Below, piece after piece: positions 8,782 through 61,703 of a DNA stretch of 64,000 nucleotides. Numbering within the stretch: the first letter of the stretch is position 1; each line of letters begins with the position of its first letter. The DNA comes from Phycisphaerae bacterium (GTDB taxonomy: Bacteria; Planctomycetota; Phycisphaerae; UBA1845; Fen-1342). The notes under the pieces were generated by a model, which was not told where the DNA came from, ran no database searches, and was given only the letters and a program-made list of their open reading frames with translations. Both the position numbers and the translations under genes were made by a program. The DNA is taken from positions 32,001 to 96,000 of the forward strand of contig JASFQK010000015.1 of NCBI GenBank assembly GCA_050115495.1, written 5' to 3'.

Positions 8782-9282
8782 TCAGCCCCCGCCTGATATC
8801 ATCTCTTCCAACTGGGCGGTGTTGCTTATCCACTGCCTGAGCGAGAATAACGCTACTGCTGCTTCCGCTATCGCTACCAGAAGGAAGAACATGAGTATCC
8901 CTGCTGGAGTCGCCTTGGGGAAGCGCCCCCAACCCGCTTCCGCAAGCGCGTCACGCTCTGCGAAGAAGGGAGCCAGGAGAAGTGGCCAGCAAGCGAAGAG
9001 TGAGGCCCAGTATAGCTGTCCCACGATGGTATGTACGTCTATGATGCGCCCATGAGAATGCGCGTGCAGGACGCAGAGCGTCGCGAAGAAAAGCTCATAG
9101 CTGTACCACAGGAAGCGCCATCTGAAGCCACGCATTGCGGCCAGCCACACTATTGACCCAACGGCAGCCGCTGCGATAACGAGGTTGCCAACGACCACGC
9201 CGACGAGGGCCACATAAACCATGCTGTCCATCACCTCTGTGGGTGTGGTGATACTCGAGCCCATGGTCGGTCCTCCGCTCAT
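8782..9282 (-). CDS. Small multi-TM hypothetical protein (candidate orphan immunity protein)
   Basis: About four hydrophobic helices. Start is either 9282 (ATGA overlap with the Rhs-remnant frame stop) or 9264 (GGAGG RBS). Confidence 0.65.
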   Translation of the reverse strand: MSGGPTMGSSITTPTEVMDSMVYVALVGVVVGNLVIAAAAVGSIVWLAAMRGFRWRFLWYSYELFFATLCVLHAHSHGRIIDVHTIVGQLYWASLFACWPLLLAPFFAERDALAEAGWGRFPKATPAGILMFFLLVAIAEAAVALFSLRQWISNTAQLEEMISGGG

Positions 9283-9338
9283 TCAATGAGATTGCTGCAA
9301 TCGCAGCACAGGCCAGCGGCAACCCTAGCCTTGCCGCT

Positions 9339-9460
9339 GCCGGCGTCCGGGTCGCAGTCGTCATTCGCCGTCGGGTCTGCGTTCACATCCATGAACAGCG
9401 GCTCATCGATGTACCGCGTCCCCCACACCCACTGCCGCGTCGCCTGGTCGCTTCCGTCGC
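9339..9460 (-). pseudogene. Rhs-core remnant (copy A)
   Basis: Translates as DGSDQATRQWVWGTRYIDEPLFMDVNADPTANDDCDPDAG, matching the QxVWGxRYIDE segment that precedes the Rhs-associated core in planctomycete Rhs proteins (recalled). Confidence 0.7.
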
Positions 9461-9483
9461 GAACCGACACGCCGGTTTCTCTG

Positions 9484-10023
9484 TTACTCCGGTGCCCCAT
9501 CGTCCAAACCATCGCCTGCCGTCACCGATATCGGCGGTACGCAAACGGTGCTGACGACCGTCTCGTCGCCGCGCTGCAATCTGGCGACCCAGAAGCCGGT
9601 GATCTCGCATTCCGCGGGGGCGGGATCCGGGCCCAGGACGACCGACCAGGCAACCTCACCCGTGTACGTGTCGCCGGGGTGCAGGACGATCGGTTTTAGC
9701 TCTGCGAGCAGCGGAATGCTGGCTTCCATGCCCGTTGCCTGGTGACACACATCACCGCCGGCCGCCACCAGCACATGCGTGTTTGCCTTGGGACCGAACG
9801 GCAGAGCGACCTTCAGTATCTGCACCGTAACGCCGGACGTGTTCACGATGTCATACCGAAGGCTGGATGCACCGGCGCTGCCGGCGTCGTGCCGCCACGT
9901 CATGCGCAAAGGCGGGCTGGTCGTTCTCGCGGCTCCCTCCGGCCCGCGGCCTTGGCTGGCCTGGAGAGCCGTCAGTGAGATCACTGCAAGCACGGCCGCG
10001 TAGCAACACATTCCGCGTTTCAC
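9484..10023 (-). CDS. Small secreted hypothetical protein (candidate orphan immunity protein)
   Basis: GTG 10023 with AAGGAGGT RBS; signal peptide; Ig-like LHPGDTYTGEV motif. Confidence 0.65.
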   Translation of the reverse strand: MKRGMCCYAAVLAVISLTALQASQGRGPEGAARTTSPPLRMTWRHDAGSAGASSLRYDIVNTSGVTVQILKVALPFGPKANTHVLVAAGGDVCHQATGMEASIPLLAELKPIVLHPGDTYTGEVAWSVVLGPDPAPAECEITGFWVARLQRGDETVVSTVCVPPISVTAGDGLDDGAPE

Positions 10024-22655: not shown

Positions 22656-23372
22656 TTACGCAGTCGCCATCGCAGCCTTGCGCCGACGGCGACGCTTCTT
22701 AACCAGTCCGACCCGCGGCGTATTGGGCGTCCGCGGGGGCAAATCACGTAGGATCGAGCGAATCTCGCGGGCGGTGTCGGTGAAGACGTCGGCGCCCACT
22801 TCCTGCCACAGGCCATCAGCGCGGTTGTAGATCCCGCCGCTGACCACGATGTTCATGGTCGGGCACACGCCGATGTCGCGGATCATCTCGACGAGTCCGC
22901 GGGTCTCGGGCACGTCCTCGGGACGCGTGCCGAAGATGACCAGGACTTCGGGCCGCACCTGGCCGACCAGGGCGAGAATCTCGTCGTGCGGCACACCGCC
23001 GCCGAGCAGATAGACCTCCCAACCGTCGGCTTGCAGCAGGTCGGCGACGACCTCGGCACCAGTCTCTTCCTGGACGCCGTTGGCGCACGTGATGATGATG
23101 CGTTTGCCGTTGCGGGCGGACTGAGGGAGCATGCCCTGTACGTAGTCGACGAGCGTGCGGTTGATGCGGCAGGCCATGTGCTCGGTCGCGAGATTGATCC
23201 GGTCATTGCGGTACAGGCTGTCCACCTGGGCCATGGCCGGCCAGATCACGTCGCAGAGGAGGTCTTCCGCGAGGACACCGTTATCGCACGCTTCCGAGAT
23301 CACGCCAAAGCACTCGGCTCGCCGACCGGCCAACAGGGGTTGCAGGTAACGAATCAACAGGGGTTCCGGCAT
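22656..23372 (-). CDS. Cobalamin (B12)-binding-domain protein (cap plus Rossmann domain, no HTH)
   Basis: Cap helix bundle with ATEH; ADLLQADGWEVYLLG; VVSGG; GAD; basic C-terminal tail. Confidence 0.8.
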   Translation of the reverse strand: MPEPLLIRYLQPLLAGRRAECFGVISEACDNGVLAEDLLCDVIWPAMAQVDSLYRNDRINLATEHMACRINRTLVDYVQGMLPQSARNGKRIIITCANGVQEETGAEVVADLLQADGWEVYLLGGGVPHDEILALVGQVRPEVLVIFGTRPEDVPETRGLVEMIRDIGVCPTMNIVVSGGIYNRADGLWQEVGADVFTDTAREIRSILRDLPPRTPNTPRVGLVKKRRRRRKAAMATA

Positions 23373-23788
23373 GGATGTCGTCTCCGGGGTGCGCCCGCGG
23401 TTCGCCAAACTCCAGGCGAGCCCGCATGGGCCATCTACCGAGCAGCCGGCGCATCCATGCGTCCGGGAAGCCGTGTTGTCCGGGTCAGGTGTGTCTGACC
23501 GCCGTCTCGGGCGGTCTCTTACCCCGCCCACAGTCTCCCGTATCGGGGGCTCGGGTCCCGGCGGTTGAGGGGCCGGCAATGGCAGAAATACAGCGTTTCA
23601 AACAGACGGGGGCGGGTGGCGGCGACCGCTCCCCCAGGAATGATCCTGGGCCCGCCGCAAGCGATGTTTTCTCGGAGCTTGCCCCCGCCGCCCGGCCAAA
23701 TACTGCGAAAGTCTGCACGCACGACTTGCGCCGCCGGCCCGTGAAGCCCGGGCGCACGGCGGCCGCGGCCCCCCACTCCGGCCGCCGC

Positions 23789-23886: not shown

Positions 23887-25008
23887 ATGGGTTTCGCCTA
23901 CACACCCGGTCTGTCCGTTGCTGCCGAGGCCACGGTCCACAAGGTCCGCCGCCTCCCCATCCGCGGCGACGTGCTCGTCGATGTCGGGCAGACCGTTGCG
24001 GCGGACGACGTCGTCGCCCAGGCGAGCCTGCCCGGCGAGGTGCGGCCCATCAACCTGGCCACGCAGCTCGGCGTCAGCCCCGAAGACGTGCCGAAGATCA
24101 TGCTCAAGGGCGAGGACGAGCCGGTCCGCCAGGGAGAGCCGCTGGCCCGCACGCACGGGCTGTTCCGCTGGTTTCGGCGGGAGTATCGGGCCCCGCTCGA
24201 TGCGACGGTCGAATCGATCTCGCACGTGACCGGGCAGGTGATCCTGCGCGGGGCGGCGACGCCGCTGCAACGCCGGGCCTACGCCCGCGGCGAAGTGGTG
24301 GCGGTTCAGCCCGGCGAGTCGGCGACGATCGAGGTACGCGGAACGTTTATCCAGGGCATCTTCGGCATCGGCGGCGAGGCGGTGGGTCCGCTCGAACTGA
24401 TCGCCAAGAGCCCGGACGAAGTGATCGACGCCGACCGGCTCAACGAATCCCACGCCGGCCGCGTGCTGGTCGGCGGGAGCCTGGTGACAGCGGCAGCCAT
24501 TCGGCGGGCCGCGGAGCTGGGCATATACGGGCTGGTGACCGGCGGTCTGGACGACGCCGACCTGCGGACCGTGCTCGGTTACGAGTTCGGTGTGGCCATT
24601 ACCGGCGACGAGACGGTCGGTGTGACGATCGTCGTGACCGAGGGCTTCGGGCAGATCGCGATGGCCGCGGGAACGTTCGACCTGCTGGCCCGCCGGGCCG
24701 GGCAGTTGGCCAGCATCAACGGGGCGACGCAGATCCGGGCCGGCGTCATCCGGCCGGAAGTGCTGATCCCGCTGGCCGAGGCCGCCGGAGAGCGGAAGTC
24801 CGCCGTCGGCGGCGGCACGCTGGAGCTGGGCACGCGCCTGCGGGCGATCCGCGAGCCGCATTTCGGGCGGCTGGGCCGTTGCACCGCCCTGCCGGTCGAG
24901 CCGGTGACGCTGGCCAGCGAGGCCCGCGTGCGCGTGCTGGAAGTCGAGTTTGACGATGGCACACGGGCGGTGGTCCCGCGGGCCAACGTAGAGTTGATCA
25001 GCGCCTAG
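23887..25008 (+). CDS. Conserved hypothetical protein (YTPGL family; barrel-sandwich-hybrid-like repeats, C-terminal SH3/KOW-like domain)
   Basis: Motifs AYTPGL, RRLPIRGDVLV, IQGIFGIGGE, GVAITGDE, TEGFG, SINGATQIRAGVIRPE and RIIREPxFG-like. Confidence 0.8.
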   Translation: MGFAYTPGLSVAAEATVHKVRRLPIRGDVLVDVGQTVAADDVVAQASLPGEVRPINLATQLGVSPEDVPKIMLKGEDEPVRQGEPLARTHGLFRWFRREYRAPLDATVESISHVTGQVILRGAATPLQRRAYARGEVVAVQPGESATIEVRGTFIQGIFGIGGEAVGPLELIAKSPDEVIDADRLNESHAGRVLVGGSLVTAAAIRRAAELGIYGLVTGGLDDADLRTVLGYEFGVAITGDETVGVTIVVTEGFGQIAMAAGTFDLLARRAGQLASINGATQIRAGVIRPEVLIPLAEAAGERKSAVGGGTLELGTRLRAIREPHFGRLGRCTALPVEPVTLASEARVRVLEVEFDDGTRAVVPRANVELISA

Positions 25009-44302: not shown

Positions 44303-45175
44303 CTACTCGCTCGCGGCGGCGGTGGCCGCCTCTTCCTCGGCCAGTTGCTCCACGTACTCGGGCTTGGGTTCGCCGAAGTAGACGAGCACCTTCGCCGGGC
44401 ACTTGGCGAAGACGGGGGCGAACTGCTCCTGACCCGTCTCCGGCGTGTACTTGTCGTAGTTCAGGTGGGCGAGGTTGTCGGTGACCTCGAACAGGTCGGC
44501 GAAGATGCGCTGGCAGGCCTTGCAGCCGACACAGCCGACGTCGCAGACCTGCTTGACGTTGCGGGCCGGCTCCTTGTTGGCGCAGGCGACGACGAGCATC
44601 TGCTCACGCTTGAAGGGAATCTGCTCGATGAGGTTCCGCGGGCAGGCCTTCACGCAGGCACCGCAGCCGGTGCACATGGCGTAATCGACTTCGGGCTTGC
44701 CCTCGATCATGTGGAGGGCGTCGAAGTTGCACGCCCGCGAGCAGTCGCCGAACCCGAGGCAGCCATACGTGCACGCCTGGGTGACACCGACGATGTTCGC
44801 CTCGGCGCACGTCCGCACGCCGTCGTAGGGCACCACGCCGTGCTTGTCCGCGGTGCGGGCGGCGCAATGGATCACCGGCCGATAGGGGAAGGTCTTGACG
44901 ACCTCGATGCCGAGGATTTCGGCGACCTTCTCGGCGGTCTTCGAGCCGCCGACGGGACAGCCGTCGCACTCGGCGCGGCCTTCGACGACGGCTTTGGCGA
45001 AATCGGCGCAGCCGGCGAAGCCGCAGCCACCGCAGTTGGCCGACGGCAGGGCGTCGGTCACCGCGGGGATGCGCGGGTCTTCCACGACCTTGAGCTTCTC
45101 CTTGGCCACGCCGAGGAGGGTCGCAAACGCGAGCGTCAGTCCGAACAGCACGATTCCGGCCAGCAGCACCACCAT
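44303..45175 (-). CDS. rnfB: Rnf electron transport complex subunit B
   Basis: N-terminal TM, LPSANCGGCGFAGC, CPVGG, CLGFGDC, CTGCGACVKACP. Confidence 0.92.
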   Translation of the reverse strand: MVVLLAGIVLFGLTLAFATLLGVAKEKLKVVEDPRIPAVTDALPSANCGGCGFAGCADFAKAVVEGRAECDGCPVGGSKTAEKVAEILGIEVVKTFPYRPVIHCAARTADKHGVVPYDGVRTCAEANIVGVTQACTYGCLGFGDCSRACNFDALHMIEGKPEVDYAMCTGCGACVKACPRNLIEQIPFKREQMLVVACANKEPARNVKQVCDVGCVGCKACQRIFADLFEVTDNLAHLNYDKYTPETGQEQFAPVFAKCPAKVLVYFGEPKPEYVEQLAEEEAATAAASE

Positions 45176-45194
45176 GGTGTACGTCTCCGCAGTC

Positions 45195-45818
45195 TTACTT
45201 GCCCATCCCGGTGAAGCCCATGAACGCCAGGGCCAGAATGCCCGCAACCAGGAGTGTGATGCCCGCACCCTGTAACGACTTAGGCACGTCGCTGAAGCGA
45301 ATGTGCTCGCGGATGCCGGCCATGATGGTGATGGCCATCATGAAGCCGATGCCGCCGCCGAAAGCGAAGATCGCCGATTGCAGCAGGCTCCGCTGGTAGT
45401 CCTCGTTCATGTCGATCAGCAGGCAGGCCCCCAGGATGGCGCAGTTGGTCGTGATCAGCGGCAAGAACACGCCGAACGCTGTGTACAGCGGCGGGAAGAA
45501 CTTCTTCAGGTACATCTCGACGAGCTGGACCATCGAGGCGATGACCATGATGAAGGCGACGTACTTCAGGAAGTACAGCGCCCCCGGATTGCCGAGCAAA
45601 TTGGCCCCGATGGGCTCGAAGATGCCGTGGACGATGAGCCAGGTGACGATGCCCGAGACGGTCATGACGAAGGTGACAGCGCAGCCCATGCCGAAGGCCA
45701 TGTCCACCTTGCGCGACACACCGAGGAAGGGGCAGATGCCCAGGAAACCCTGAAGCACCAGGTTGTTCACCAGGACGACGCTGATGAAGACGCCGACGAG
45801 TGCGCCGAAATCCATCAC
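45195..45818 (-). CDS. rnfA: Rnf subunit A
   Basis: FLGICPFLGVS, FLPLITTNCAILG. Confidence 0.93.
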   Translation of the reverse strand: MMDFGALVGVFISVVLVNNLVLQGFLGICPFLGVSRKVDMAFGMGCAVTFVMTVSGIVTWLIVHGIFEPIGANLLGNPGALYFLKYVAFIMVIASMVQLVEMYLKKFFPPLYTAFGVFLPLITTNCAILGACLLIDMNEDYQRSLLQSAIFAFGGGIGFMMAITIMAGIREHIRFSDVPKSLQGAGITLLVAGILALAFMGFTGMGK

Positions 45819-46444
45819 GCACCTCCCTGCGCCCGGCGGGCGCGGACGTGGTTGAAGATGCCGATGACCACGCCGAGCGTCAGAAACGCCCCCGGCGGCA
45901 GGATCATGATGATCCAGGCGTGGGGCTCAAACAGCTTGAGGTTCAACGGCGTCCAGCCCAGGATCGTCCCCGAACCCATCGCCTCGCGGATCACACCGAG
46001 GATGCACAGAGCGATGGTGAAGCCCAGGCCGATGCCGGCGGCGTCCGCCAGCGAACGCCCCAGGCCGCTCTTGATGGCTACCACCTCGGCACGGCAGATG
46101 ATGATGCAATTGACGATGATCAACGGGACGAAGGGGCCGAGGTTGACGCTGATCTCCCACACGAACGCCTTCAGCACCAGGTCGGCGATCGTCACGAACG
46201 TGGCGATGGTGAGCGTGAAGATGAGGATGCGCACGTGCGGCTTGATCAGATGCCGCAGCGTGCTGGTGATCAGGTTGGACATGAACACCACGAACGTCGC
46301 CGCCAGCCCCATCACCAGGGCGTTCGCCACCGAGTTGGTGATGGCCAGCGTCGGACACATCCCCAGGAGCTGCACCAGCACCGGGTTGTTAGACAGCACG
46401 CCCTCCTTGAACTGCTGGAGGTTGGAGCCGTTTTCGTCTGCCAT
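45815..46444 (-). CDS. rnfE: Rnf subunit E
   Basis: NPVLVQLLGMCPTLA, PLIIVNC, LPPGAF. Confidence 0.93.
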   Translation of the reverse strand: MADENGSNLQQFKEGVLSNNPVLVQLLGMCPTLAITNSVANALVMGLAATFVVFMSNLITSTLRHLIKPHVRILIFTLTIATFVTIADLVLKAFVWEISVNLGPFVPLIIVNCIIICRAEVVAIKSGLGRSLADAAGIGLGFTIALCILGVIREAMGSGTILGWTPLNLKLFEPHAWIIMILPPGAFLTLGVVIGIFNHVRARRAQGGA

Positions 46445-46487
46445 GCGCTTGCACTCCCGTCATCCGCCGCCGCGGGCGGATCGCCGG

Positions 46488-47054
46488 CTACTCGTAGGTC
46501 AGTTCGCTCAGCCGCGGCCGCACCTCGCTGGTTACGCGGTTGAGGATGTCGGTCACGTAGTTGCTCGAATAGGTGGCGCCGGTAATGGCCTTGATTTCGT
46601 TCGCGCCCTCCGCCGGGTCGTTCTTGGTCACCGTCGCCGGCCGGGCGGCGTCCAGGCCGCGGTACTGAAGAATCCACTCGCCGCGAATCTTGTTGCCCAA
46701 CCCGGGGGTCTCCTTGTCGTCAATCACCTTGACACCGAGCACCTTCTCGCCGGCCAGATCGAGGCCCACGACAACCGTGAGCTTGTCGACGAAGCCGATG
46801 CCGGTCGCCCTGACAGCCCAGCCGACCTGCTGGCCGTCGGCGTCGAGGCACTTGAAGACCGTCGTCTTCTCGTCGAACTTCGCCTCGGGCATCTGCACGG
46901 TGCCCGGAGTGACGTCGCCGATCGCCTCTTCCAGGGCCTGCTTCCGGTTCGCCTGGATCTTCGCGTCCAGCGACGTCTGCGTGCCCGCCAGCAGCACCGC
47001 GAACACGATGCCCATCACCAGTACCAGCCACGATTCGTCCACGAATTTCTTCAC
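46488..47054 (-). CDS. rnfG: Rnf subunit G (FMN-binding)
   Basis: GTG 47054; N-terminal TM, ETPGLG, flavinylation motif ITGATYSS. Confidence 0.9.
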   Translation of the reverse strand: MKKFVDESWLVLVMGIVFAVLLAGTQTSLDAKIQANRKQALEEAIGDVTPGTVQMPEAKFDEKTTVFKCLDADGQQVGWAVRATGIGFVDKLTVVVGLDLAGEKVLGVKVIDDKETPGLGNKIRGEWILQYRGLDAARPATVTKNDPAEGANEIKAITGATYSSNYVTDILNRVTSEVRPRLSELTYE

Positions 47055-47101
47055 TGCACCGTCTCCCTTTCGCCGGGCCCGCAGCGCCCGGCGAAGTGTA
47101 C

Positions 47102-48223
47102 CTAGGCCGCCGGCACCTTCCCGCCAAACGGTGTCGGCACCGTCCAGCGCTCGATCAGGGGCGTCAGGGCGTTCATGATCAGAATCGCGAACATGAACCC
47201 TTCCGGGTACACGCCGAACACACGAATCAGCACCACCAGCACACCCACGCCGACGGCGAAAACCCACCGTCCGCGCGGCGTAACCGGCGCCCCGACGTAG
47301 TCCGTGGCGATGAAGAACGCCCCGAACATCAGGGCCCCGCTGGTCAGTTGGTACAGCGGGTTGGCGTAGCGGCCCGAGTCGATCAGATACAGAATCGTCG
47401 TGAACACCGCCACGCTGCCCAGCACCCCTACCGGCATCCGCCAGTCCGCCACCCGCCGGATCACCAGGTACATCCCGGCGAGGAAGGCGATCAGGGCGCT
47501 GGTCTCACCGACGCAGCCACGGACGTTGCCGATGAGCAGTTGCCAGAGCCCGGGCATCTCCTGGCGGACCTTCTCGGCCTCGGCCACGAACTCCTCGGCC
47601 TTGTCCGGGTCGGCCTGCGCCTTGCCGACGAACTCCCGCAGCTTGGCCGCCTGGTACAGCGGCGTCGCGGTCGACGTGGCGTCGACACCCGCGGCCTTCA
47701 TCGGCGCCGTATGCGACCACAGAACCATCGCCGCCGGGAAGCAGATCATCAGAAACGCCCGGCCGACCATCGCCGGGTTAAACAGGTTCTGGCCCAGCCC
47801 GCCGAACACGGCCTTGGCCAGGGCAATAGCGACGATGCCGCCGATGAAGGCCATGTAGAACTTCGACGACGTGGCCATCGACGGAGGCAGCGAGAAGGCC
47901 AGGATCATACCGGTGACGATGGCCGAGCCGTCGGCCAGCGACGACTGCCGCCGACCGCGGATCCAGTTGGCCGCCGCCTCCGCCACCAGGCAGCCCGCCA
48001 CGGTCGTGACGACCAGCACCAGGGCCGACAGCCGGTACATGTAGATGGCCACGGCCAGCAGCGGCAGCATGGCCAGCACGACCTCGAACATGATCCGCCG
48101 GGTCGTCGTGCCCTCGCTCAGGTGTGGCGACGACGCGACGTGGAAAGCCGGAGGCGGCGCCGGTTCGGCCGGCTTCTCCGGCGGGGGAGGTACGCTATCT
48201 GCCTGACTCATCGAATCGGCCAC
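47102..48223 (-). CDS. rnfD: Rnf subunit D
   Basis: SPH, FGGLGQNLFNPA, DATSTATPL (FMN site), GETS, FIATDY, YPEG. Confidence 0.93.
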   Translation of the reverse strand: MADSMSQADSVPPPPEKPAEPAPPPAFHVASSPHLSEGTTTRRIMFEVVLAMLPLLAVAIYMYRLSALVLVVTTVAGCLVAEAAANWIRGRRQSSLADGSAIVTGMILAFSLPPSMATSSKFYMAFIGGIVAIALAKAVFGGLGQNLFNPAMVGRAFLMICFPAAMVLWSHTAPMKAAGVDATSTATPLYQAAKLREFVGKAQADPDKAEEFVAEAEKVRQEMPGLWQLLIGNVRGCVGETSALIAFLAGMYLVIRRVADWRMPVGVLGSVAVFTTILYLIDSGRYANPLYQLTSGALMFGAFFIATDYVGAPVTPRGRWVFAVGVGVLVVLIRVFGVYPEGFMFAILIMNALTPLIERWTVPTPFGGKVPAA

Positions 48224-48241
48224 TCCTCTCAGATGCGCTGA

Positions 48242-49678
48242 CTAGGACGCCTTCTGCTCTGCTGCCTGGCGGGCCTTCTCGGCTTCGGCCTTGCGCCGCC
48301 GTTCGGCCTGAATCGCCCGCAACTGGGTCTTGCCGCTGCGCATGTACTGCGGCAGCGGGATGTGCGCCGGACACACAAACGCGCAGCACCCGCACTCGCA
48401 GCAAGCCATCAGGTCATACTGCTCGGCCATCTCCATGTCGTGGAACTTGACGGCGTGGGCCAGCTTCGTCGGCGACAGGTACAACGGGCAGTTGTCGATG
48501 CACCGCCCGCAGCGGATGCACGGCCCCTCCTCGACGTGGTCGACCTCGTCGTCCGTCAGCACCAGAATGCCGTTGACGCCCTTCACGACGGGCACGTTCA
48601 GGTTGGGCACCGTCGGGCCCATCATCGGGCCGCCGGCGATGACCTTGACTGTGTTGGCCGTCACGCCGCCGCAAGTCTCGATCAGCTCGCTGAACGCCGT
48701 GCCGATGGGCACCAGGTAATTCCCCGGCTGCCGCACGCCGCCGCCGGTTATGGAGACCACGCGGTGCGTAAAGGGCTGCTGACGGACGACGGCGCGGGCG
48801 ATGCTATGCGCGGTCGCGACGTTCACCACGACGACGCCGACATCCAGCGGCAGGCCGCGCGGCGCGCTCGGCACCGTGCGCTTCAGCACCGCCGGAATGA
48901 GCTGCCGTTCGCCGCCCATCGGGTACTTCGTCGCACAGACGACGAGCTCGAGCCTCGGCCGGCCGTTGATGATCTTGCGCATCAGCTCGATGGCGTCGGG
49001 CTTGTTCTCTTCGATGGCAACGATGCCACGCTCGGCACCGGCCGCGTGCACGGCGAGCTGCAACCCGGTGACGATCGCCTCCGGGCATTCGAGCATGAGA
49101 CGATGGTCGGCGGTCAGGTACGGCTCGCACTCGGCGCCATTGAGAATGACCGTGTCCACCGGACGTTCGGGGTTGCGCTTGAGCTTGATGAACGTGGGGA
49201 ACGTCGCCCCGCCCTGCCCCACCAGGCCCATCGCCCGCAACTGCTTGCAGATCTCCTCGGGGTCGTAGCTCGTGGGCTCGACGCCGTCCCAGTTGCGATC
49301 GAGGAACTGCTCGAGGAAGTCCTCGGGCATGGCCGGACCCTCGGCCGGCAGCTTGATCGTCACGGCCGGCACCCGCCGTCCCGACGGCAGCAGGGCGATC
49401 GTCGACGCCCCGACCGTGCCGTTGATGGACGAGTGAATCGGCGCCGAGACGAACGACTCGGTGTCGGCGATGCGATCGCCCAGCTTCACCTCGTCACGCA
49501 GCTTCACCACCGGCGTGCAGGCCGCCCCGAGGTTCTGCGCCATCGGAACGATCAGGTCCTTCTTCGGCACGAACAGCTTGATGGGCAGCGATTCGGTGTA
49601 TTCCTTCCGATGCGGCGGATGGATGCCCCGCTGGAAGCTGCACAAACCGGACGAACCACTCACAATGCCGGCGCTCAT
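48242..49678 (-). CDS. rnfC: Rnf subunit C
   Basis: GIHP, GQGGATFPT, NGAECEPYLTAD, GGPMMG, CIRCGRCIDNCP, CCECGCCAFVCP. Confidence 0.94.
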   Translation of the reverse strand: MSAGIVSGSSGLCSFQRGIHPPHRKEYTESLPIKLFVPKKDLIVPMAQNLGAACTPVVKLRDEVKLGDRIADTESFVSAPIHSSINGTVGASTIALLPSGRRVPAVTIKLPAEGPAMPEDFLEQFLDRNWDGVEPTSYDPEEICKQLRAMGLVGQGGATFPTFIKLKRNPERPVDTVILNGAECEPYLTADHRLMLECPEAIVTGLQLAVHAAGAERGIVAIEENKPDAIELMRKIINGRPRLELVVCATKYPMGGERQLIPAVLKRTVPSAPRGLPLDVGVVVVNVATAHSIARAVVRQQPFTHRVVSITGGGVRQPGNYLVPIGTAFSELIETCGGVTANTVKVIAGGPMMGPTVPNLNVPVVKGVNGILVLTDDEVDHVEEGPCIRCGRCIDNCPLYLSPTKLAHAVKFHDMEMAEQYDLMACCECGCCAFVCPAHIPLPQYMRSGKTQLRAIQAERRRKAEAEKARQAAEQKAS

Positions 49679-50079
49679 TCGCCACCTCCGGCCGAGTCTT
49701 TCCGCTGATTCGAGACCAACATGAGCAATCCCTTCGCGATCGCGGCGCCCACCGCCAGACCGAGCAGCATCCCCGCGAACTGCCACCAGCCCAGGCTCGC
49801 GCCGGACTTCACCGCCAGCAACCGTCCCGCCGCCCACGCACCCGCCAGAGCGCTGACGAGCGGCAACAGGAAGACCGCAGCACACGAGCCGACCAGCAGG
49901 CCACCCTCGCTATACCGGCGGACTTCGGGATCGAGCAGACGCTGCGTGGGGTCGCCGCCGTCTTTCATGAGCGGACAGGAATCGGTTCCGTCGCCGTGGC
50001 CGTGGCCGTGGCCGTGGCCGTGGCAGTGCCCGCCACAACCAAACCAGAACCGCTCCAGCATGTTGGTGAGGAAGCTCAT
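49675..50079 (-). CDS. RseC-like membrane protein with Cys/His-rich N-terminus
   Basis: AVFLLPL plus two TM helices as in RseC; first gene of the rnf operon (ATGA overlap with rnfC); CGGHC(HG)5. Confidence 0.65.
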   Translation of the reverse strand: MSFLTNMLERFWFGCGGHCHGHGHGHGHGDGTDSCPLMKDGGDPTQRLLDPEVRRYSEGGLLVGSCAAVFLLPLVSALAGAWAAGRLLAVKSGASLGWWQFAGMLLGLAVGAAIAKGLLMLVSNQRKDSAGGGE

Positions 50080-54955: not shown

Positions 54956-55333
54956 ATGTTCGAGCTCGATGAATCCCGCCGCGATGCGCTGCTGGAGCGC
55001 TGGGCCCGCCGGCTGGTGGACCGCGGGCTGGCGGCGCCGGCGGTGTTTCTGCTTGAGGCGCACAAGCCGCTGGCCGGGCTGTCGGCGCAGGCGCTGATCG
55101 CGTTTCGACCGCTGCTGACGCCGCTGGTGCCATTGGACGTCGGCGAACTGGCGGCGTTCATGCGCGACGTGGACAACATCGAGCGGCTGCTTCGCCGAAT
55201 CGAGGAGCTGGAGGACCGGCGAACGGCGCGGCAGGTCATTCGCGGGCGCCGGGCGACCGAGGCTCGGCGACGCCTGCGCCGCATCCGCCGGTGGCAGCGC
55301 GACCGCCGGCCAGGTGGGGCAGGGCGGGCGTGA
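54956..55333 (+). CDS. Conserved small hypothetical protein (PAxxxLExxKPL family)
   Basis: ATG 54956; motif APAVFLLEAHKPL...Q...NIERLLRRIEE. Confidence 0.65.
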   Translation: MFELDESRRDALLERWARRLVDRGLAAPAVFLLEAHKPLAGLSAQALIAFRPLLTPLVPLDVGELAAFMRDVDNIERLLRRIEELEDRRTARQVIRGRRATEARRRLRRIRRWQRDRRPGGAGRA

Positions 55334-55341
55334 AGGTACCC

Positions 55342-55896
55342 CTACTCCTTCGTGAACTGCACGCCGACGTGATACTTGCGGGCCGAGACGTACGTGCAGT
55401 GCCGGACGACGGCGACGAGGCAGGGCCGATCGGGGAGCGTCTCGAAGACCGCCCAGACGCGCGTGCCGACATGGACCAGCCGCGCTGACAGAAAGGCGAA
55501 GCCGCCGGAAGAGATGTTCAGCGTGATGACGTCCATCTCCTCCCAGCGCGGGCCGAGCGGCGTGACGTCCTCATACAGCACACGCATCTGCGTGGGCCAG
55601 GGATAGCGCCGGTGGCGGCGCGACTCCACACGGCCAACTGCCGACGGCCGTTCGGCCTCGGCCGCCCCGGCCGCGACCGCCAGCACTTGAGCTACCGGGG
55701 GACCCTCATCCGGCCAATCGGGGCCGGCGTACAGCTCGTCCACCCCCTCGCCCTGGAGAGCGTTGATGTCGGACTCGGTGACCGTCTGGCCACGGGACAG
55801 AACGACGCGTCCCTCTCTGTCCACTACATGGCCGGGGAGTGGGTCCCCCGCAACAAGCGACGCAGGGTCCACTCTCCGACGTTCGCTGTTGCTCAT
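55342..55896 (-). CDS. PilZ domain protein (c-di-GMP receptor)
   Basis: RRHRR (RxxxR), NISSGG (D/NxSxxG), terminal GVQF. Confidence 0.82.
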   Translation of the reverse strand: MSNSERRRVDPASLVAGDPLPGHVVDREGRVVLSRGQTVTESDINALQGEGVDELYAGPDWPDEGPPVAQVLAVAAGAAEAERPSAVGRVESRRHRRYPWPTQMRVLYEDVTPLGPRWEEMDVITLNISSGGFAFLSARLVHVGTRVWAVFETLPDRPCLVAVVRHCTYVSARKYHVGVQFTKE

Positions 55897-56121: not shown

Positions 56122-58026
56122 TTAACCCCACAGCTTCCCCAGCCAGTCCTCGATCAGAAAGCCGATCCGCGGCGCCAGCCAGGACAGGCGCGTGTTCACC
56201 GTGTTGCCGAACATGGCCCCGAAACCGATCATCATCGCCATGCGCCCCGCGCTGATCGTCCCCCGCCCCACCGCCGACCGCGGGCGGAAGATAAACACGA
56301 AATACGCCAGGGATAGCACCGCCACCGCGACGAATACCAGATGTTCGAGCCTCGCCGGATCGAACGTGGTAACCCCCGTTTGCGTGTCGGTTACCCACGG
56401 CCAGACCGGCTGAATAGTGTCCAGAATCTGCGGAATAACCAGATTGGGCTGGTTCTCGAACTCGGGGCCGATCATCAGGCCAATAAACGCGGCCACCACA
56501 AGCTGGTTCAACCAGCGATAGCGCTTCGAATAGGCGAAATACCAAAGCGCTCCCGGAACCAGCAGCAGCAGCCATAGAGCGTTTGTCCAGTGCCGGGCGC
56601 CGGTGAAGCCGCCGAGCATCGGTTCGATCCAATCCGGACGCAGAATCTCGTTGACCTGGTCCAGCAGGTACGCCAGTGCCCCGCCGATGATGATGGCCTC
56701 GATGAACCGGTAGAAGCGATTGTCGCCGAGCAGGAACGCGAATACGCCCAGCGTCAGGAACGCCATGATGAACTCGCCGATGCGCGACTCGATCATCTGG
56801 GCATAGCGGCGGTCAGCTTCGAGGCGGGCGACGGTGGCGAGCGCGGGCACGGACGACTCGGCGGCGACGGCCTGCACTTCGGCGAGCAGGTCGTCGCGTC
56901 CCACGCGTTCATAGCGCGGATAACTGCGCCCCGGCTCGTCGTCCGGACGCGCCACGCGCAGCCGGGCGAACTTGTCGTCCGCGTTGTGGCGCCACACTTC
57001 TCCGAGAACGCTCCCGCCGTAAAACAGGACAAAGGCACCGAACAACGTCCACATGAACCAGCGCGGCAGCGGCGGGAGCGGCGGGCGCAGCTTGCGCGGG
57101 TCGAGGCGCGGCAATCGCCCGCTGCGTTCGGCCCAGCGTGTGGTCAGCAAGGCGACATTGCCGACGAGCACGAGCAGCAACAGAAGCGACTTCCCGAGGC
57201 TCATCGAGTTGTCGATGGGCCGGGTCATGGGCTCGTCGGGGTCGAGGAGGCTGCGGTATTCGGTAGCGGCGCGGGCCGAGTTCAGCAGGCCGAATAGCTG
57301 GTTGGATTTGACGTAGGGATAGAGGCGATTGGCTTCGATGCCGAGCGTAGCGGGCCCGATAAGCAGCGACGGGAACTCGCCGCGGACGAGGCCGGCGATA
57401 TAGCGGCTCTCGTCGCCGGCGGAGCAGGTGATCACGGCTGACACGTCGGCCAGGCCGTGGAAGCGGGCGAGCAGCGGGTAGCTGGCGTCGTCGAGCAGGT
57501 CTTTGTCGTTGACGTAGTCGCGGCCGAAGATCTCGCGCGGGCGAGTGATGATCGAGCGGGCCTGCGAGGCGAAGACGGGGGCGTTGGTATAGCCGAAGTC
57601 GAGGTAGTCCTCGCCGTAGACCCAGGTCGGGATCGGTTCGCCGCGGCGCCAGGCACGCTGGACCTCGTCCTCGCGGGCACGCTCGAAGGCGGCCATGGCA
57701 GCGTCGTGGAACTCCGGCGGACCCATCGAGCAGATGAAGATGAACTTCAGCCGGCGGCGGAGCAGGTGGCGGACGAGCACGTTGAATTGCGGCTCGTTCT
57801 CGCCGGACGTGCCGGGGCCCCAGTTGGTCAGGAAAAGAACGACCTTGTCGCGCTCGACCGGATCGGCGGCGATGCGCTCGATCTGGTCGTAGAACTTCTG
57901 CGTATAGGTGTCCGGGTGGATCGGCAGACTGTACGTCACCACGAACGGCACGCTCAGCACGGCCACCAGCAACAGATAGACGAGCCGGCGGTCGGCCGAT
58001 TGCAGCCAGCGGACAACGCGCAACAC
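56122..58026 (-). CDS. Uncharacterised membrane protein; apparent fusion of two modules
   Basis: N-module DRRLVYLL...PYVKSNQLFGLL...EY; C-module with about six TMs, LTLGVFAFLLGDNRFYRFIE...GFGAMFGNTVNTRLS. Confidence 0.8.
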   Translation of the reverse strand: MLRVVRWLQSADRRLVYLLLVAVLSVPFVVTYSLPIHPDTYTQKFYDQIERIAADPVERDKVVLFLTNWGPGTSGENEPQFNVLVRHLLRRRLKFIFICSMGPPEFHDAAMAAFERAREDEVQRAWRRGEPIPTWVYGEDYLDFGYTNAPVFASQARSIITRPREIFGRDYVNDKDLLDDASYPLLARFHGLADVSAVITCSAGDESRYIAGLVRGEFPSLLIGPATLGIEANRLYPYVKSNQLFGLLNSARAATEYRSLLDPDEPMTRPIDNSMSLGKSLLLLLVLVGNVALLTTRWAERSGRLPRLDPRKLRPPLPPLPRWFMWTLFGAFVLFYGGSVLGEVWRHNADDKFARLRVARPDDEPGRSYPRYERVGRDDLLAEVQAVAAESSVPALATVARLEADRRYAQMIESRIGEFIMAFLTLGVFAFLLGDNRFYRFIEAIIIGGALAYLLDQVNEILRPDWIEPMLGGFTGARHWTNALWLLLLVPGALWYFAYSKRYRWLNQLVVAAFIGLMIGPEFENQPNLVIPQILDTIQPVWPWVTDTQTGVTTFDPARLEHLVFVAVAVLSLAYFVFIFRPRSAVGRGTISAGRMAMMIGFGAMFGNTVNTRLSWLAPRIGFLIEDWLGKLWG

Positions 58027-58028
58027 GG

Positions 58029-58883
58029 CTAGTCCCCTCCCCGGGCCGGCTCGGTCAGCCCACGTTCGAGTCCCAGCAGCACGCGCAAGCCCATGGCCAC
58101 GACGGCGACGGCGATACCGATCTCCAGCCCCCGCTGCATGCCCGAATTCAGCACGCGGTTGTCGATGTCGGCCCAGTACGGCAGATCGACCACGTCGTGC
58201 CCACCAAAGACCGTGTTCACGGCGGCACTGAGCCAGCCGCCGAGCGGGTCACTGCCGAGGATCACGACGGCCGCCGAGAGCATCATGACGGTCGCTTCGA
58301 GCGAGCGGATGCGGAAGGCGCGGTAGGCGGCGTAGGTGATGTAGAAGCCGAGCAGCGACATGACCGTCGCGGCCAGCGGGCTGATGAAGTTGTTCAGGTA
58401 GAAGGTGCGTGGCTCAAAGCGATACGTGGCGTCGTATTCGTAGCAGCGGTTGACCAGGCGCAGCTCTTCGGGGCTGAGCGTGCCGAGCAGCCGGTCGCGC
58501 TCGACGGGATCGTCCGTCTCGAAGGCAGCGCGGTAGGTGGCCAACGGACCGGTGGCCTCGGCCTTGAGGGCGCGGCCCTGAGCGTTGAGGTGGTACTCCC
58601 AAAGCAGAAACGTCGTCACGGTGAAGAACGTCACGAAGACGACGATGGAGAAGGGCCACTCCTTTCGGCGGGCCAGGATATTGGCGCCGTGGACCCAGAA
58701 AAGGTTCACGATGCCCAGGCCGACGGCCATGGTGGCGACGACGTTGATGCTCAGCGACAGGCCGGTGCGGACGTCGGTGAGGTGCAGGGCGCGGCCGAGG
58801 CCGGTCTCATCACCGACGAAAAAGGCGAAGATGTAGAAGACGGCCCCCACGATGATCGCCGCCCAGATCAGTCGTTGCCGCAT
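58029..58883 (-). CDS. Uncharacterised multi-TM membrane protein
   Basis: About six TMs; SLLGFYITYAAYRAFRIRSLEA and LRVLLGLER motifs; 2-nt gap to the next gene. Confidence 0.82.
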   Translation of the reverse strand: MRQRLIWAAIIVGAVFYIFAFFVGDETGLGRALHLTDVRTGLSLSINVVATMAVGLGIVNLFWVHGANILARRKEWPFSIVVFVTFFTVTTFLLWEYHLNAQGRALKAEATGPLATYRAAFETDDPVERDRLLGTLSPEELRLVNRCYEYDATYRFEPRTFYLNNFISPLAATVMSLLGFYITYAAYRAFRIRSLEATVMMLSAAVVILGSDPLGGWLSAAVNTVFGGHDVVDLPYWADIDNRVLNSGMQRGLEIGIAVAVVAMGLRVLLGLERGLTEPARGGD

Positions 58884-58892
58884 GCTGTCCCG

Positions 58893-59801
58893 CTACTGAA
58901 ACGCTTCCCGAAGACGCTGGAGGAACGCCGCCGCCGCCGGCCAGGCGTACAGACCGCAGCCCACGACGATGAGGGCGAGCACACACAGTTTGAAGACGTC
59001 CTGGGCCCCGAGGCTGCCCAGCAGCGGCGGGTCCTGGCTGAGCTTCGCCGAGGCCGCCCAGAATTCCTCGCCGATGAGCGTGTAGTCGCACGAGGCCACG
59101 AAGAACGGCACCTGCGACAGCGTGTCGGTGCCGGCGATCTGCATGGCTTCGAGCGTCTGGCCGGTCTCGGCGAAGAGGAGCGAGTCGGCCTCCCAATAGC
59201 CGAAGTAGAAGCACGCCGCCGGCCGCTCTTCGAGCATCCAGCCCATCGAGCCGATGGCGAAGAAGAACTGGCCGCCGGGATAGAAACGCACGTCCTCGGC
59301 GTGGAAGGAACCGATGGCGCCGGCGTCGATGTAGCCGTCGCGCATGGCGTTGATGTGGACGGGCATCGTCTCGGGATAGCAGCACGGGACGATGAGCCGG
59401 TTGTCGAGCTCGCCGCTGCGGCGGGCCACGTCGCGCAGGAGGGGCATCGCCGCGAAGAGTTGAACACGTTTCAGGTCGCAGGCCCCCCCTACCGTGAACA
59501 GCGTCGGGCGGCCCATCTCGGTTGCGCGGCTGACGGCTTCTTCGATCGCCGCCAGACCGGCGATCTGCCGGCCGGGCAGGACGTGCCCGCGCCAGGCGGC
59601 CCAGATACCGGCCAGCACGCCCGCGGAGACCAGCACCAGCAGCCCGCGCGGCGTCCAGAAGCGCACCGCGGCCCACAAAGCGGCATCGTCGGACGCATCC
59701 TGCCCGAAAGCCGCCGCCGTCGTGAGCAGGACGAGCAGCAACGCGGCACTCCAGCGTGCGTAGTGACGTGTGGTAAAGGCCGAGGGTGCGTCGTGCATCA
59801 C
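58893..59801 (-). CDS. DUF6754-like membrane-anchored protein
   Basis: IAGLAAIEEAVSRATEMGRP, ADSLLFAETG, QIAGT, QVPFFVASCDYTLIGEE, LGSLGAQD. Family name is from recall. Confidence 0.8.
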   Translation of the reverse strand: MMHDAPSAFTTRHYARWSAALLLVLLTTAAAFGQDASDDAALWAAVRFWTPRGLLVLVSAGVLAGIWAAWRGHVLPGRQIAGLAAIEEAVSRATEMGRPTLFTVGGACDLKRVQLFAAMPLLRDVARRSGELDNRLIVPCCYPETMPVHINAMRDGYIDAGAIGSFHAEDVRFYPGGQFFFAIGSMGWMLEERPAACFYFGYWEADSLLFAETGQTLEAMQIAGTDTLSQVPFFVASCDYTLIGEEFWAASAKLSQDPPLLGSLGAQDVFKLCVLALIVVGCGLYAWPAAAAFLQRLREAFQ

Positions 59802-59953: not shown

Positions 59954-60022
59954 TTGACGCGGGGCCTGGCGCACGTTATCGTTGTTTGCATAAAGGGATG
60001 TTTTCTATCCCTTTATGCAAAC
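59954..60022 (+). promoter_or_regulatory. Sigma70 promoter and operator inverted repeat of the AbiE operon
   Basis: TTGACG-N17-TATCGT (59954-59982) followed by perfect IR GTTTGCATAAAGGGAT-N7-ATCCCTTTATGCAAAC (59984-60022). Confidence 0.75.
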
Positions 60023-60039
60023 TAACTGGAGCAATAGGA

Positions 60040-60834
60040 ATGGCCGGACTAACCGTGGAGGACTGGGTCGACGCCCGGCAAGCTCGGGGAAAGTACACGT
60101 TCCTCCGCGCCGAAGCGATTGATGGTACCGGGCTCTCGGCCGAGTCCGTCAAGAAGGCCCTTCAACGACTGGCACGGCGGCAGCGCGTCGCGAAGGTCAA
60201 GAACTACTTCTACGTGATTGTGCCGCTTGAGTACCTCCACGCCGGCAGCCCACCTTCCTCGTGGTTCATCGATGACCTGATGAAGGCGATGGACCGGCCG
60301 TACTACGTCGGGCTGCTCAGCGCGGCCGGCATCCACGGCGCTTCCCACCATCAGCCACAGGAATTCCAGGTAATCACGGATCGGCCGGTGCGCCCCTTGC
60401 AGGTCGGCCGTACTCGAATCAGGTTCTTCGCGAGCAAACGCACTGCGAACACCGCCGTGCAAAATGTGAAGACGCCCACCGGCGCCATGCGCGTGTCCAC
60501 GCCGGAAGCAACGGCTTTCGATCTGGTTCGTTTTGCCAAGGCAGCGGGCCAGATGGACAACGTCGCCACTGTCCTGGCGGAACTGGTCCCGCTGCTTGAT
60601 CCGCAGCGGATGTTGAAGGTGGTGCGCACCGGCGGGGACATTCGTAGTGCGCAGCGTCTCGGCTACCTGCTTGAGAAGGTCCGCGGGCGATCGCCGGCGA
60701 AGGCGTTCCATGATTGGCTCAAGCGTCAATCTCCTCGCACCGTGCCCCTGCGGCCGGGACGGGCAGCAGCCGGAGCCGAGGAGGATCGGCGTTGGCACGT
60801 GCTCGTCAGCGAGCCGGTTGACGTGGAATCGTGA
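60040..60834 (+). CDS. abiEi: Type IV toxin-antitoxin AbiEi-family antitoxin
   Basis: N-terminal wHTH-like region; YYVGLLSAA..HGASH..PQ.FQV, STPEATAFD, QRLGYLLE; coupled to the toxin by a GTGA overlap. Confidence 0.85.
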   Translation: MAGLTVEDWVDARQARGKYTFLRAEAIDGTGLSAESVKKALQRLARRQRVAKVKNYFYVIVPLEYLHAGSPPSSWFIDDLMKAMDRPYYVGLLSAAGIHGASHHQPQEFQVITDRPVRPLQVGRTRIRFFASKRTANTAVQNVKTPTGAMRVSTPEATAFDLVRFAKAAGQMDNVATVLAELVPLLDPQRMLKVVRTGGDIRSAQRLGYLLEKVRGRSPAKAFHDWLKRQSPRTVPLRPGRAAAGAEEDRRWHVLVSEPVDVES

Positions 60835-61703
60835 TTCCGCAGGCACACATCACGGCATGGCGTGCGATCGCCCCGTGGGGCGACGACGCTCAGGTCGAGC
60901 AGGACCTCGTACTCTCGCGGGCGGTTGTCGAGCTGTTCGCCGATGCGGAACTGGCGGAGTTGCTCGCGCTTCGGGGTGGAACGGCCCTCAACAAGCTGTT
61001 CATTCGGCCGGCCTGTCGGTACTCGGAGGACATTGACCTGGTGCAGGTGAAGCCGGGAGCCATCGGCGGCGTGCTCAATGCGATCCGCCGGCGGCTCGAT
61101 CCCTGGCTCGGCCGACCCAAGCGGTCGAGTGGCGAGGCCAGCGTGACCTTGGTCTATCGCTTCGAATCGGAGATACAGCCCGTCCGTCCGCTGCGTCTGA
61201 AGACCGAAATCAACACGCGCGAGCACTTCGCTGTGCTGGAGCACAATCGGCTTCCGCTGCGTGTAGAGAATCCCTGGTTCACCGGCCAGGCCGATGTGAC
61301 CACATACGCGCTCGACGAGTTGATGGGAACGAAGCTCCGCGCACTGTACCAGCGGCGCAAAGGTCGGGATCTCTTCGATCTATGGCTGTGCCTGAATCGG
61401 GGGCTGCTCGACGCGGCGCAGGTGGTGGCCTGTTTCACCGCGTACATGAAGCACGAGGGGCGAACGATCTCGCGCGCCGAGTTTGAGCGCAATCTGTTTG
61501 AGAAGGAGAGCAACCCTGGCTTCCTGGGTGATATCGGCCCGTTACTGGCAGCGGGCGTGAATTACGACGTGAGCGTGGCACTGGCGCTGGTGCGTGACGG
61601 TCTCGTCAGTCGCTTGGAAGGCGACCCGTGGCGGGCGACATCGTCCGAGCCTGACACGGACAGGGGCCGCAGACCCCGCAGAGGCAAGGCGAGGAAGAAG
61701 TAA
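60831..61703 (+). CDS. abiEii: Type IV toxin-antitoxin AbiEii-family nucleotidyltransferase toxin
   Basis: VEQDL, RGGTAL, RYSEDID, KLRAL..R.KGRDLFD motifs. Confidence 0.9.
   Translation: MIPQAHITAWRAIAPWGDDAQVEQDLVLSRAVVELFADAELAELLALRGGTALNKLFIRPACRYSEDIDLVQVKPGAIGGVLNAIRRRLDPWLGRPKRSSGEASVTLVYRFESEIQPVRPLRLKTEINTREHFAVLEHNRLPLRVENPWFTGQADVTTYALDELMGTKLRALYQRRKGRDLFDLWLCLNRGLLDAAQVVACFTAYMKHEGRTISRAEFERNLFEKESNPGFLGDIGPLLAAGVNYDVSVALALVRDGLVSRLEGDPWRATSSEPDTDRGRRPRRGKARKK

Follow-up and report, generated by a model that had tools for sequence, protein, structure and literature searches.

The window analysed here, a 64,000-nucleotide stretch of contig JASFQK010000015.1 from the Phycisphaerae bacterium assembly GCA_050115495.1, carries a compact cassette of three genes, A, B and C, that belongs to a system which is conserved and, as far as searched, undescribed. 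The cassette encodes four membrane subunits (A, B, and C1 and C2, the latter two usually encoded by separate genes but fused here in the product of gene C), and these very probably form one physical machine with an actin-fold ATPase, F, and two further proteins, E and G, encoded outside the cassette. Our favored reading, to which we assign a probability of roughly 0.45, is that the four-subunit membrane unit binds the shared ATPase and works as an ATP-driven importer of a solute that may be peptide-like. The cassette genes are as follows:

58893-59801, minus strand, gene A: open reading frame (ORF) of 302 amino acids, DUF6754.
58029-58883, minus strand, gene B: ORF of 284 amino acids.
56122-58026, minus strand, gene C: ORF of 634 amino acids, C1-C2 fusion.

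The initial annotation of this DNA had described three co-oriented, tightly spaced genes with host-like codon usage, and both points were verified: ORFs and coordinates were recovered, the three genes share the minus strand with spacings of 9 nt (A-B) and 2 nt (B-C), and the G+C content at third codon positions (GC3; 0.88, 0.89 and 0.86 for A, B and C) is similar to that of two housekeeping genes of the window, trigger factor (0.89) and purB (0.88). All five motifs that had been quoted were present, YTPGL standing at residue 5 of the ORF that starts at 23887. Two membrane-anchored soluble alpha/beta domains were likewise seen, in confident models of A and C, and the transmembrane helices, put at more than a dozen in the initial annotation, came to about 17 when counted from models and hydropathy (two in A, six in B and nine in C). 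Walker A, ABC-signature, CxxCH and CxxC motifs were absent from A, B and C, and this motif scan agreed with the Pfam matches of the window proteins on the absence of ATP-binding cassette (ABC), major facilitator superfamily (MFS), tripartite ATP-independent periplasmic (TRAP) and redox motifs. Upon a Pfam check of each protein, A matched DUF6754; B and C matched nothing in Pfam at 1e-3 and nothing in NCBIfam above cut-off. The description as a three-gene system missed the four-subunit make-up that results from the fusion in C, and it overlooked the nearby gene G. The nearest relatives (67-74% identity) come from metagenome-assembled genomes of Phycisphaerae and Planctomycetales. In the genome of the window itself (G000; 92% complete), A, B, C, E, F and G are each present as a single copy. 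A scan for promoters and terminators returned signals at chance level.

Gene order was followed in 125 loci and the window, some of the loci being kin or near-duplicates of one another; for their annotation, profiles were derived from the ORFs of these loci themselves. In line with the conserved gene block described in the initial annotation, A was followed by B, C1 and C2 in 106 of the 111 testable A genes (of 149, those with 3 kb or more of downstream sequence). Two of the five exceptions, genomes G141 and G042, have the missing genes at another place in the genome. The common full order was H-G-F-E-A-B-C1-C2, where H is an optional subunit. Two or three copies of A occur at 16 loci, mostly as complete tandem cassettes; wherever F and main E are in view at these loci, there is a single copy of each. 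The parts may also be dispersed: G-F-E lies apart from the cassette in the single-contig genomes G031 and G121, F-E-A apart from B-C1-C2 in G141, and in the single-contig genome G042 the genes G, A-E, F, C2, B and C1 occupy six separate places, all of them kept.

Joint retention of six families (A, B, C2, G, E and MutL/F) was tested in a phylum sample of 201 genomes, each at least 85% complete and G000 among them. A, B and C2 occurred in the same 51 genomes, while G was found in 51, E in 50, and members of the MutL family in 52. Forty-eight genomes had all six families and 146 had none, so that the suspected co-occurrence with a GlmL-like ATPase and the YTPGL protein was borne out across the sample. 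Five of the seven exceptions are assemblies of 240-660 contigs; the others are G200, considered below, and G047, where a short GlmL-like gene adjoins the genes for mutase E and S in a genome devoid of A. Of the 151 genomes in a class sample, 10 encode A; main-type F and main-type E were each found in nine, the same nine for both. Carriers make up a quarter of the genomes of the phylum sample, spanning 24 families, and further include Chloroflexota, one Firmicutes record and homologue clusters with non-bacterial members. The system had been thought restricted to anaerobes, which did not hold: an aa3-type oxidase gene was matched in all four tested genomes of carrier family f8 (above cut-off in three), whose members are likely aerobes. 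Carriers of family f36 are likely anammox autotrophs, duplicated hydrazine-synthase genes being found in 4/4 (the HZS_alpha domain also matched one control genome).

The subunits encoded outside the cassette are listed here together with the optional subunit H:

54956-55333, plus strand, subunit G: 125 amino acids, no named family; own-genome hidden Markov model E-value 4.5e-33.
23887..25008, plus strand, subunit E (the YTPGL protein): barrel-sandwich-hybrid arms, central alpha/beta domain, KOW domain.
G000:C5:121857-123680, minus strand, subunit F: GlmL-like actin-fold ATPase, on another contig and in an unrelated gene setting.
L106:3362-3781 and 28 other loci, optional subunit H: two membrane helices, weak bacterial pleckstrin homology (PH) match.

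Judged from its residues, F is intact in the putative nucleotide-binding motifs of the ASKHA (acetate and sugar kinase/Hsp70/actin) fold: D13-G15-S16-T17-T18-K20, D286 to D293 and S430-G431-G432 are invariant in 45 F sequences, and we take them to be the phosphate-1, phosphate-2 and adenosine motifs. The protein, of about 600 amino acids with a C-terminal extension, matches Pfam MutL with an E-value of 3e-131, and its family further matches Hydantoinase_A (weakly, in 45/45), BcrAD_BadFG (15/45), MreB-like_C and a B12-binding family (weakly, in 4/45). Mean column identity is 54% for F and 52% for E. The latter is likely the partner of F. A 995-residue cluster of the MutL family (66 members) aligns across all of E with a TM-score of 0.87 and represents an F-E fusion; among 55 members, E matched Biotin_lipoyl in 38, RnfC_N in 32, KOW in 18 and an RraA-like family in one. 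G, convergent on the A-B-C cassette at a distance of 0.8 kb, sits among system genes in 55 loci, and 50 of the 51 phylum-sample genomes that encode it also have A. H was present in 26 of the 201 genomes, 25 of them system carriers; it was not found in G000 at 1e-6, and a weak PH-domain gene on contig C8 of that genome was not accepted as H. Five genomes that also hold the main system carry a second, divergent F-E pair with neither G nor a cassette adjacent (L158-L162), and in two related genomes (L166 and L167) a selenocysteine-synthesis cluster (selA, selB and two selD) lies between F and E. In the window, E is divergent from a gene for a stand-alone B12-binding-domain protein (22656-23579, minus strand), which did not come up as a recurring neighbor of E.

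The features of A to which F is predicted to dock are these:

58893..59801, minus strand, layout of A: likely signal peptide, membrane helix, Rossmann-like domain (residues 74-257), second membrane helix.
59508..59540, minus strand, RATEMG motif of A (residues 88-98): where ATPase F is predicted to dock.

A belongs to Pfam DUF6754 (PF20539; E-value 5e-74, 249 bits against a gathering cut-off of 27), a family that itself carries no function. Its structure model is confident (predicted local distance difference test [pLDDT] 91.7; predicted template-modelling score [pTM] 0.85), and across 135 sequences R92, T94, E95, M96 and G97 are conserved at 98-99%. The A protein of the window is without the FN3-type domain that most A homologues carry on the outside. 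From charge bias and from the signal peptide and FN3 domain of the homologues, the Rossmann-like domain would be cytoplasmic. A has no GxGxxG motif, and none of 29 long A proteins is fused to another subunit.

Binding between the ATPase and the membrane unit was modelled in one complex job comprising F (residues 9-605), E (154-372) and A (74-257), with three runs and three controls. Docking scores were 0.69, 0.68 and 0.69 over the three runs against 0.00 for the best control, and the score mark is one that 116 of 157 solved complexes attain, as do 2 of 215 mismatched pairs, counts that calibrate a three-chain job with custom alignments only roughly. The runs agreed on at least 83% of contacts with a partner pLDDT of at least 84, and replacing F while keeping E brought the score down to 0.00. 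The interface joins A residues 88-98, 131-133 and 220 to F residues 105-110, 131-132, 156-165, 219, 222 and 397-400; of the RATEMG site, residues 88, 91-92 and 94-98 take part. In this model an inserted domain of F is predicted to grip the end of the RATEMG helix of A through two loops (105-110 and the glycine-rich GGTDGG loop, 156-165), both of which contact E95. Since no solved relative of F or A was found, there was nothing for the model to memorize. Conservation of the A interface was 0.81, against 0.65 for random residue sets, and 1.1% of draws reached it. Five divergent F proteins without an adjacent cassette are altered at positions 106, 109, 162, 165, 397 and 398; given these changes in the A-docking residues, the divergent F-E pair likely serves another client. 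No confident E-A contact appeared in the complex model, from which the barrel-sandwich arm of E was omitted, and its absence is for that reason no argument against binding. The model supports F-A binding.

The remaining parts of the membrane unit are arranged as follows:

58029..58883, minus strand, B: about six membrane helices and a variable outer insertion.
57127..58026, minus strand, C1 half of gene C: signal anchor, Rossmann-like domain, second membrane helix; stand-alone homologues of about 280 amino acids.
56800..57126, minus strand, fusion linker: extra membrane helix (around residues 322-345) and outer insertion, from the model.
56122..56799, minus strand, C2 half of gene C: about six membrane helices; stand-alone homologues of 200-300 amino acids.

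The outer insertion of B measures about 65 residues in the window and several hundred in some homologues, which grow to 600-800 amino acids through insertion at one fixed site. B had no Pfam family above cut-off and no PDB match, and the Atlas named no family for it. That gene C is a fusion is apparent from its homologues, one group of which aligns to residues 1-300 (C1) and the other to 410-634 (C2); the fused form was found in the window and nine other loci, and in 7 of 150 listed representatives. The structure model of C is confident (pLDDT 90.4; pTM 0.88). From charge bias and from the signal peptide and FN3 domain of A homologues, the Rossmann-like domain of C1 appears to be periplasmic. 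The extra helix of the linker would be needed if the end of C1, on the inside, is to join the start of C2, on the outside; a topology with A inside and C1 outside agrees with this helix and with the propellers inserted at one C2 loop. In the C2 homologues P0254, P0273, P0297, P0298 and P0300, one loop contains a BamB-like propeller or a carbohydrate-binding-like domain. C2 itself is possibly built of three hairpin repeats, as suggested by a weak internal sequence repeat (P 0.006 and 0.001).

Helices and strands follow one another in an identical order in the domains of A and C1, with a membrane helix closing each, and nine of the 50 best fold matches are common to both over corresponding ranges; the two may be paralogous. 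Foldseek returned no match at E <= 0.001 for the A or C model, and VIA-align yielded tied Rossmann-type matches only (best Z 10.0 for A and 8.1 for C1, the membrane part of C being barely probed). Because the matches are tied Rossmann-type folds throughout, no family can be named for either domain. A GxGxxG pattern occurs once in the C1 of the window, as a chance-like match missing from the family consensus. PDB sequence searches with A, B, C1, C2, E, F and G returned nothing below an E-value of 0.04, and no sequence homology above the reversed control was found between B and C2.

From gene order, the C1-C2 fusion and the C model, we infer that A, B and C associate. In the working model of an ATP-driven importer, B and C2 would form the membrane core and path, capped by C1 on the outside and by A on the inside. 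ATP turnover in F, with E and G, would tug A at the RATEMG site and so open the inner and outer caps in turn, and one F-E pair may serve several membrane cassettes of different specificity. Shared ATPases serve several membrane units in energy-coupling factor (ECF) importers and in some ABC importers, and the presence of several cassettes per motor would fit cargo-specific units. We counted in favor of import the conserved polar residues in, or at the ends of, membrane helices (D268 and K271 of A; T173, R188, E196 and R251 of B; N290 of C1; T21, E39, T205, R209 and R216 of C2, numbered from residue 405), as well as GxxxG motifs within the membrane helices of C2. That peptides are the cargo is doubtful. 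Somewhat more tentatively than import itself, we propose that the system represents a new class of primary active transporter, found in many bacterial phyla, with an actin-fold ATPase docked on a four-subunit membrane core, two related Rossmann-like lids on opposite faces of that core, and interchangeable cassettes powered by the one ATPase.

Several results weigh against this reading. The import step itself is one that we infer, and no substrate-binding protein accompanies the system, 3 of 129 neighbors scanned being peptide-binding proteins of family 5; the outer add-on domains, FN3 repeats and BamB-like propellers, are commoner in scaffolds than in solute receptors. Among neighboring ORFs (140 of 147 flanking and 7 of 28 inserted ORFs scanned), no common partner beyond the eight families was found and the neighbors vary. 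G200 (L168), although 99% complete, has G, E and F with no match to A, B, C1 or C2, a pattern that may reflect an assembly gap or natural loss of the membrane unit. No P value attaches to joint retention, for the genomes are kin and not independent. The presence of likely aerobic and anammox carriers makes a fermenter-specific role unlikely and weakens the case for a part in peptide fermentation. As to the complex model, besides its rough calibration, the F interface is without significant excess conservation over the rest of F (10.5% of draws). Finally, sequence homology between A and C1 (22.2) is not above the reversed control (20.4).

An unlikely alternative is envelope remodelling or quality control, in which the pull of F on A would displace lipids or membrane proteins, or extract them, or else be passed on as force to outer appendages. 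The scaffold-like character of these appendages (FN3, propellers, coiled coil) fits such a role, as does the occurrence, at two loci with an A protein of about 1,300 amino acids, of TolB-like beta-propeller (PD40 in L053) and OmpA-domain genes within the operon or immediately behind it (L053:724-1794 and 9041-9805; L055:12381-13421 and 3506-4420). Scattered neighbors include rhomboid proteases, SPFH/flotillin, a LiaF-like gene, PAP2, CdsA, PlsX and cardiolipin synthase, but each envelope-type neighbor is confined to 1-3 related loci, with no background rate behind the count, and the A of the window is almost devoid of an outer domain. The known relatives of F are chaperone-like reactivases (PMC4682846, PMC7674605), which would suit remodelling; carriers among Chloroflexota, Firmicutes and non-bacterial groups, on the other hand, imply that no single envelope type is required. 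Quite unlikely, in our estimate, is a transmembrane sensor or gated ion channel in which C1 and the appendages sense a ligand, A relays it, and F-E act as output or gate, the two Rossmann-like domains behaving as RCK gating domains do. RCK domains do rank among the fold matches of A (1id1; Z 9.4, root-mean-square deviation [rmsd] 5.3, 135 residues aligned) and of C1 (Z 7.9, rmsd 5.9, 139 aligned), with the C-terminal helix included in both, yet they are tied with unrelated Rossmann folds, and A is without GxGxxG. Many receptors around one shared core would also fit signalling, and E has a KOW domain; however, no kinase, cyclase or DNA-binding gene is a regular neighbor in the neighborhood scan, and some 17 helices in four subunits exceed what a receptor typically needs.

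Transport-coupled chemistry or a membrane enzyme, with F phosphorylating an incoming or membrane-held substrate in the manner of ASKHA kinases or hydantoinase-type enzymes, is improbable. The Hydantoinase_A and BcrAD_BadFG matches of F and the strong conservation of F and E speak for it, whereas the membrane subunits lack a conserved catalytic or cofactor set of His or Cys and no downstream pathway gene is linked. It is very improbable that F is an ordinary glutamate-mutase reactivase, the membrane genes being unrelated passengers or a B12-handling accessory. The MutL match and the weak B12-binding matches are what such a role has in its favor; on the opposite side, F falls short of all three GlmL cut-offs, G000 has no match to mutase E (PF06368), no glutamate mutase lies beside F, and the one short GlmL-like gene checked, that of G047, has its mutase genes adjoining and no A in the genome. 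The sub-cut-off scores and the missing mutase E largely refute a glutamate-mutase role for F. A lysine-aminomutase search gave no match in any genome searched and is hence uninformative.

Three other features of the window were noted:

55342-55896, minus strand: PilZ-domain gene (RxxxR, N-x-S-x-x-G), 225 nt behind gene C on the same strand.
59986-61703, plus strand: AbiEi/AbiEii type IV toxin-antitoxin pair, directly upstream of the cassette and divergent from it.
44303-49885, minus strand: Rnf-type operon (RnfC, D, G, E and B matches), ApbE in the vicinity; a conserved link to the system was not apparent.

PilZ genes also lie behind the cassette in L004; the PilZ gene could tie the operon to cyclic di-GMP or be there by local chance. 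With GC3 values of 0.73/0.78, below those of the cassette, the AbiEi/AbiEii pair is likely a recent arrival. A possible connection with glycine cleavage, Rnf or B12 enzymes was set aside as lineage-local.

Only two parts of the system have database families, and one of them, F, goes by a misleading mutase name, while homologue clusters reach many little-studied phyla. No description of the system, and no mention of DUF6754 or of PF13941, was found in the literature searched, with subscription journals outside its coverage, nor did system terms occur in five supplements of PMC10632474 (essentiality data; the main data table lay outside the search). As the initial annotation had supposed, no solved or named complex matches the system. 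The known ATP-driven solute transporters use, to our knowledge, P-loop or P-type ATPases, and we know of no actin-fold ATPase established as the dedicated motor of a solute transporter. The predicted docking site, with E95 of A in the glycine-rich loop of F, and the seven-part list make the proposal directly testable; even if a rival explanation were right, the system would be an undescribed ATPase-coupled membrane machine.

Among known systems, F has the same ASKHA core motifs as GlmL/MutL, a reactivase acting on B12-dependent glutamate mutase, and as Or-4 (PF13941; NF040745, NF040744, TIGR01319). It nevertheless scores below three NCBIfam cut-offs (245/475, 223/600 and 176/204), and its C-terminal extension and predicted binding to a membrane subunit set it apart from a reactivase. 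The dehydratase reactivase is an ATPase of Hsp70-like build that has an insert domain and a swivelling domain and remodels its partner (PMC7674605). F is likewise an ATPase of the actin/Hsp70 fold predicted to grip a partner domain, and F plus E may be a split version of the alpha subunit of the diol/glycerol dehydratase reactivase (PDB 1nbw). The central domain of E resembles a swivelling domain by eye, with no consistent Pfam or PDB hit; here, however, a membrane complex is the predicted client, and in the model A sits on F, with no confident contact to E. RCK/KTN transporters (Ktr, Trk, Kef, MthK) have membrane-tethered Rossmann-like domains in a topology that may be similar; in contrast, A is devoid of GxGxxG, its domain and that of C1 would lie on opposite faces, and there is no match to a K-channel or Trk family. 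Of the Rnf/Nqr pumps, the barrel-sandwich arm of E alone recalls RnfC/NqrA, and the window proteins have no Cys clusters. Inverted-repeat transporters may offer a parallel in the secondary-structure order of A and C1, but the sequence signals do not rise above the reversed control. MFS and TRAP families were absent from the Pfam matches of the window proteins and of 138 B and 109 C2 members, and no ABC or ECF motif or family match was found in A, B, C, E or G. The present system differs from ECF/ABC importers in having no P-loop ATPase, ABC signature, EcfT or solute-binding protein, and an ATPase of the actin fold in their stead; it resembles them in that several membrane cassettes, often unlinked, go with one ATPase module.

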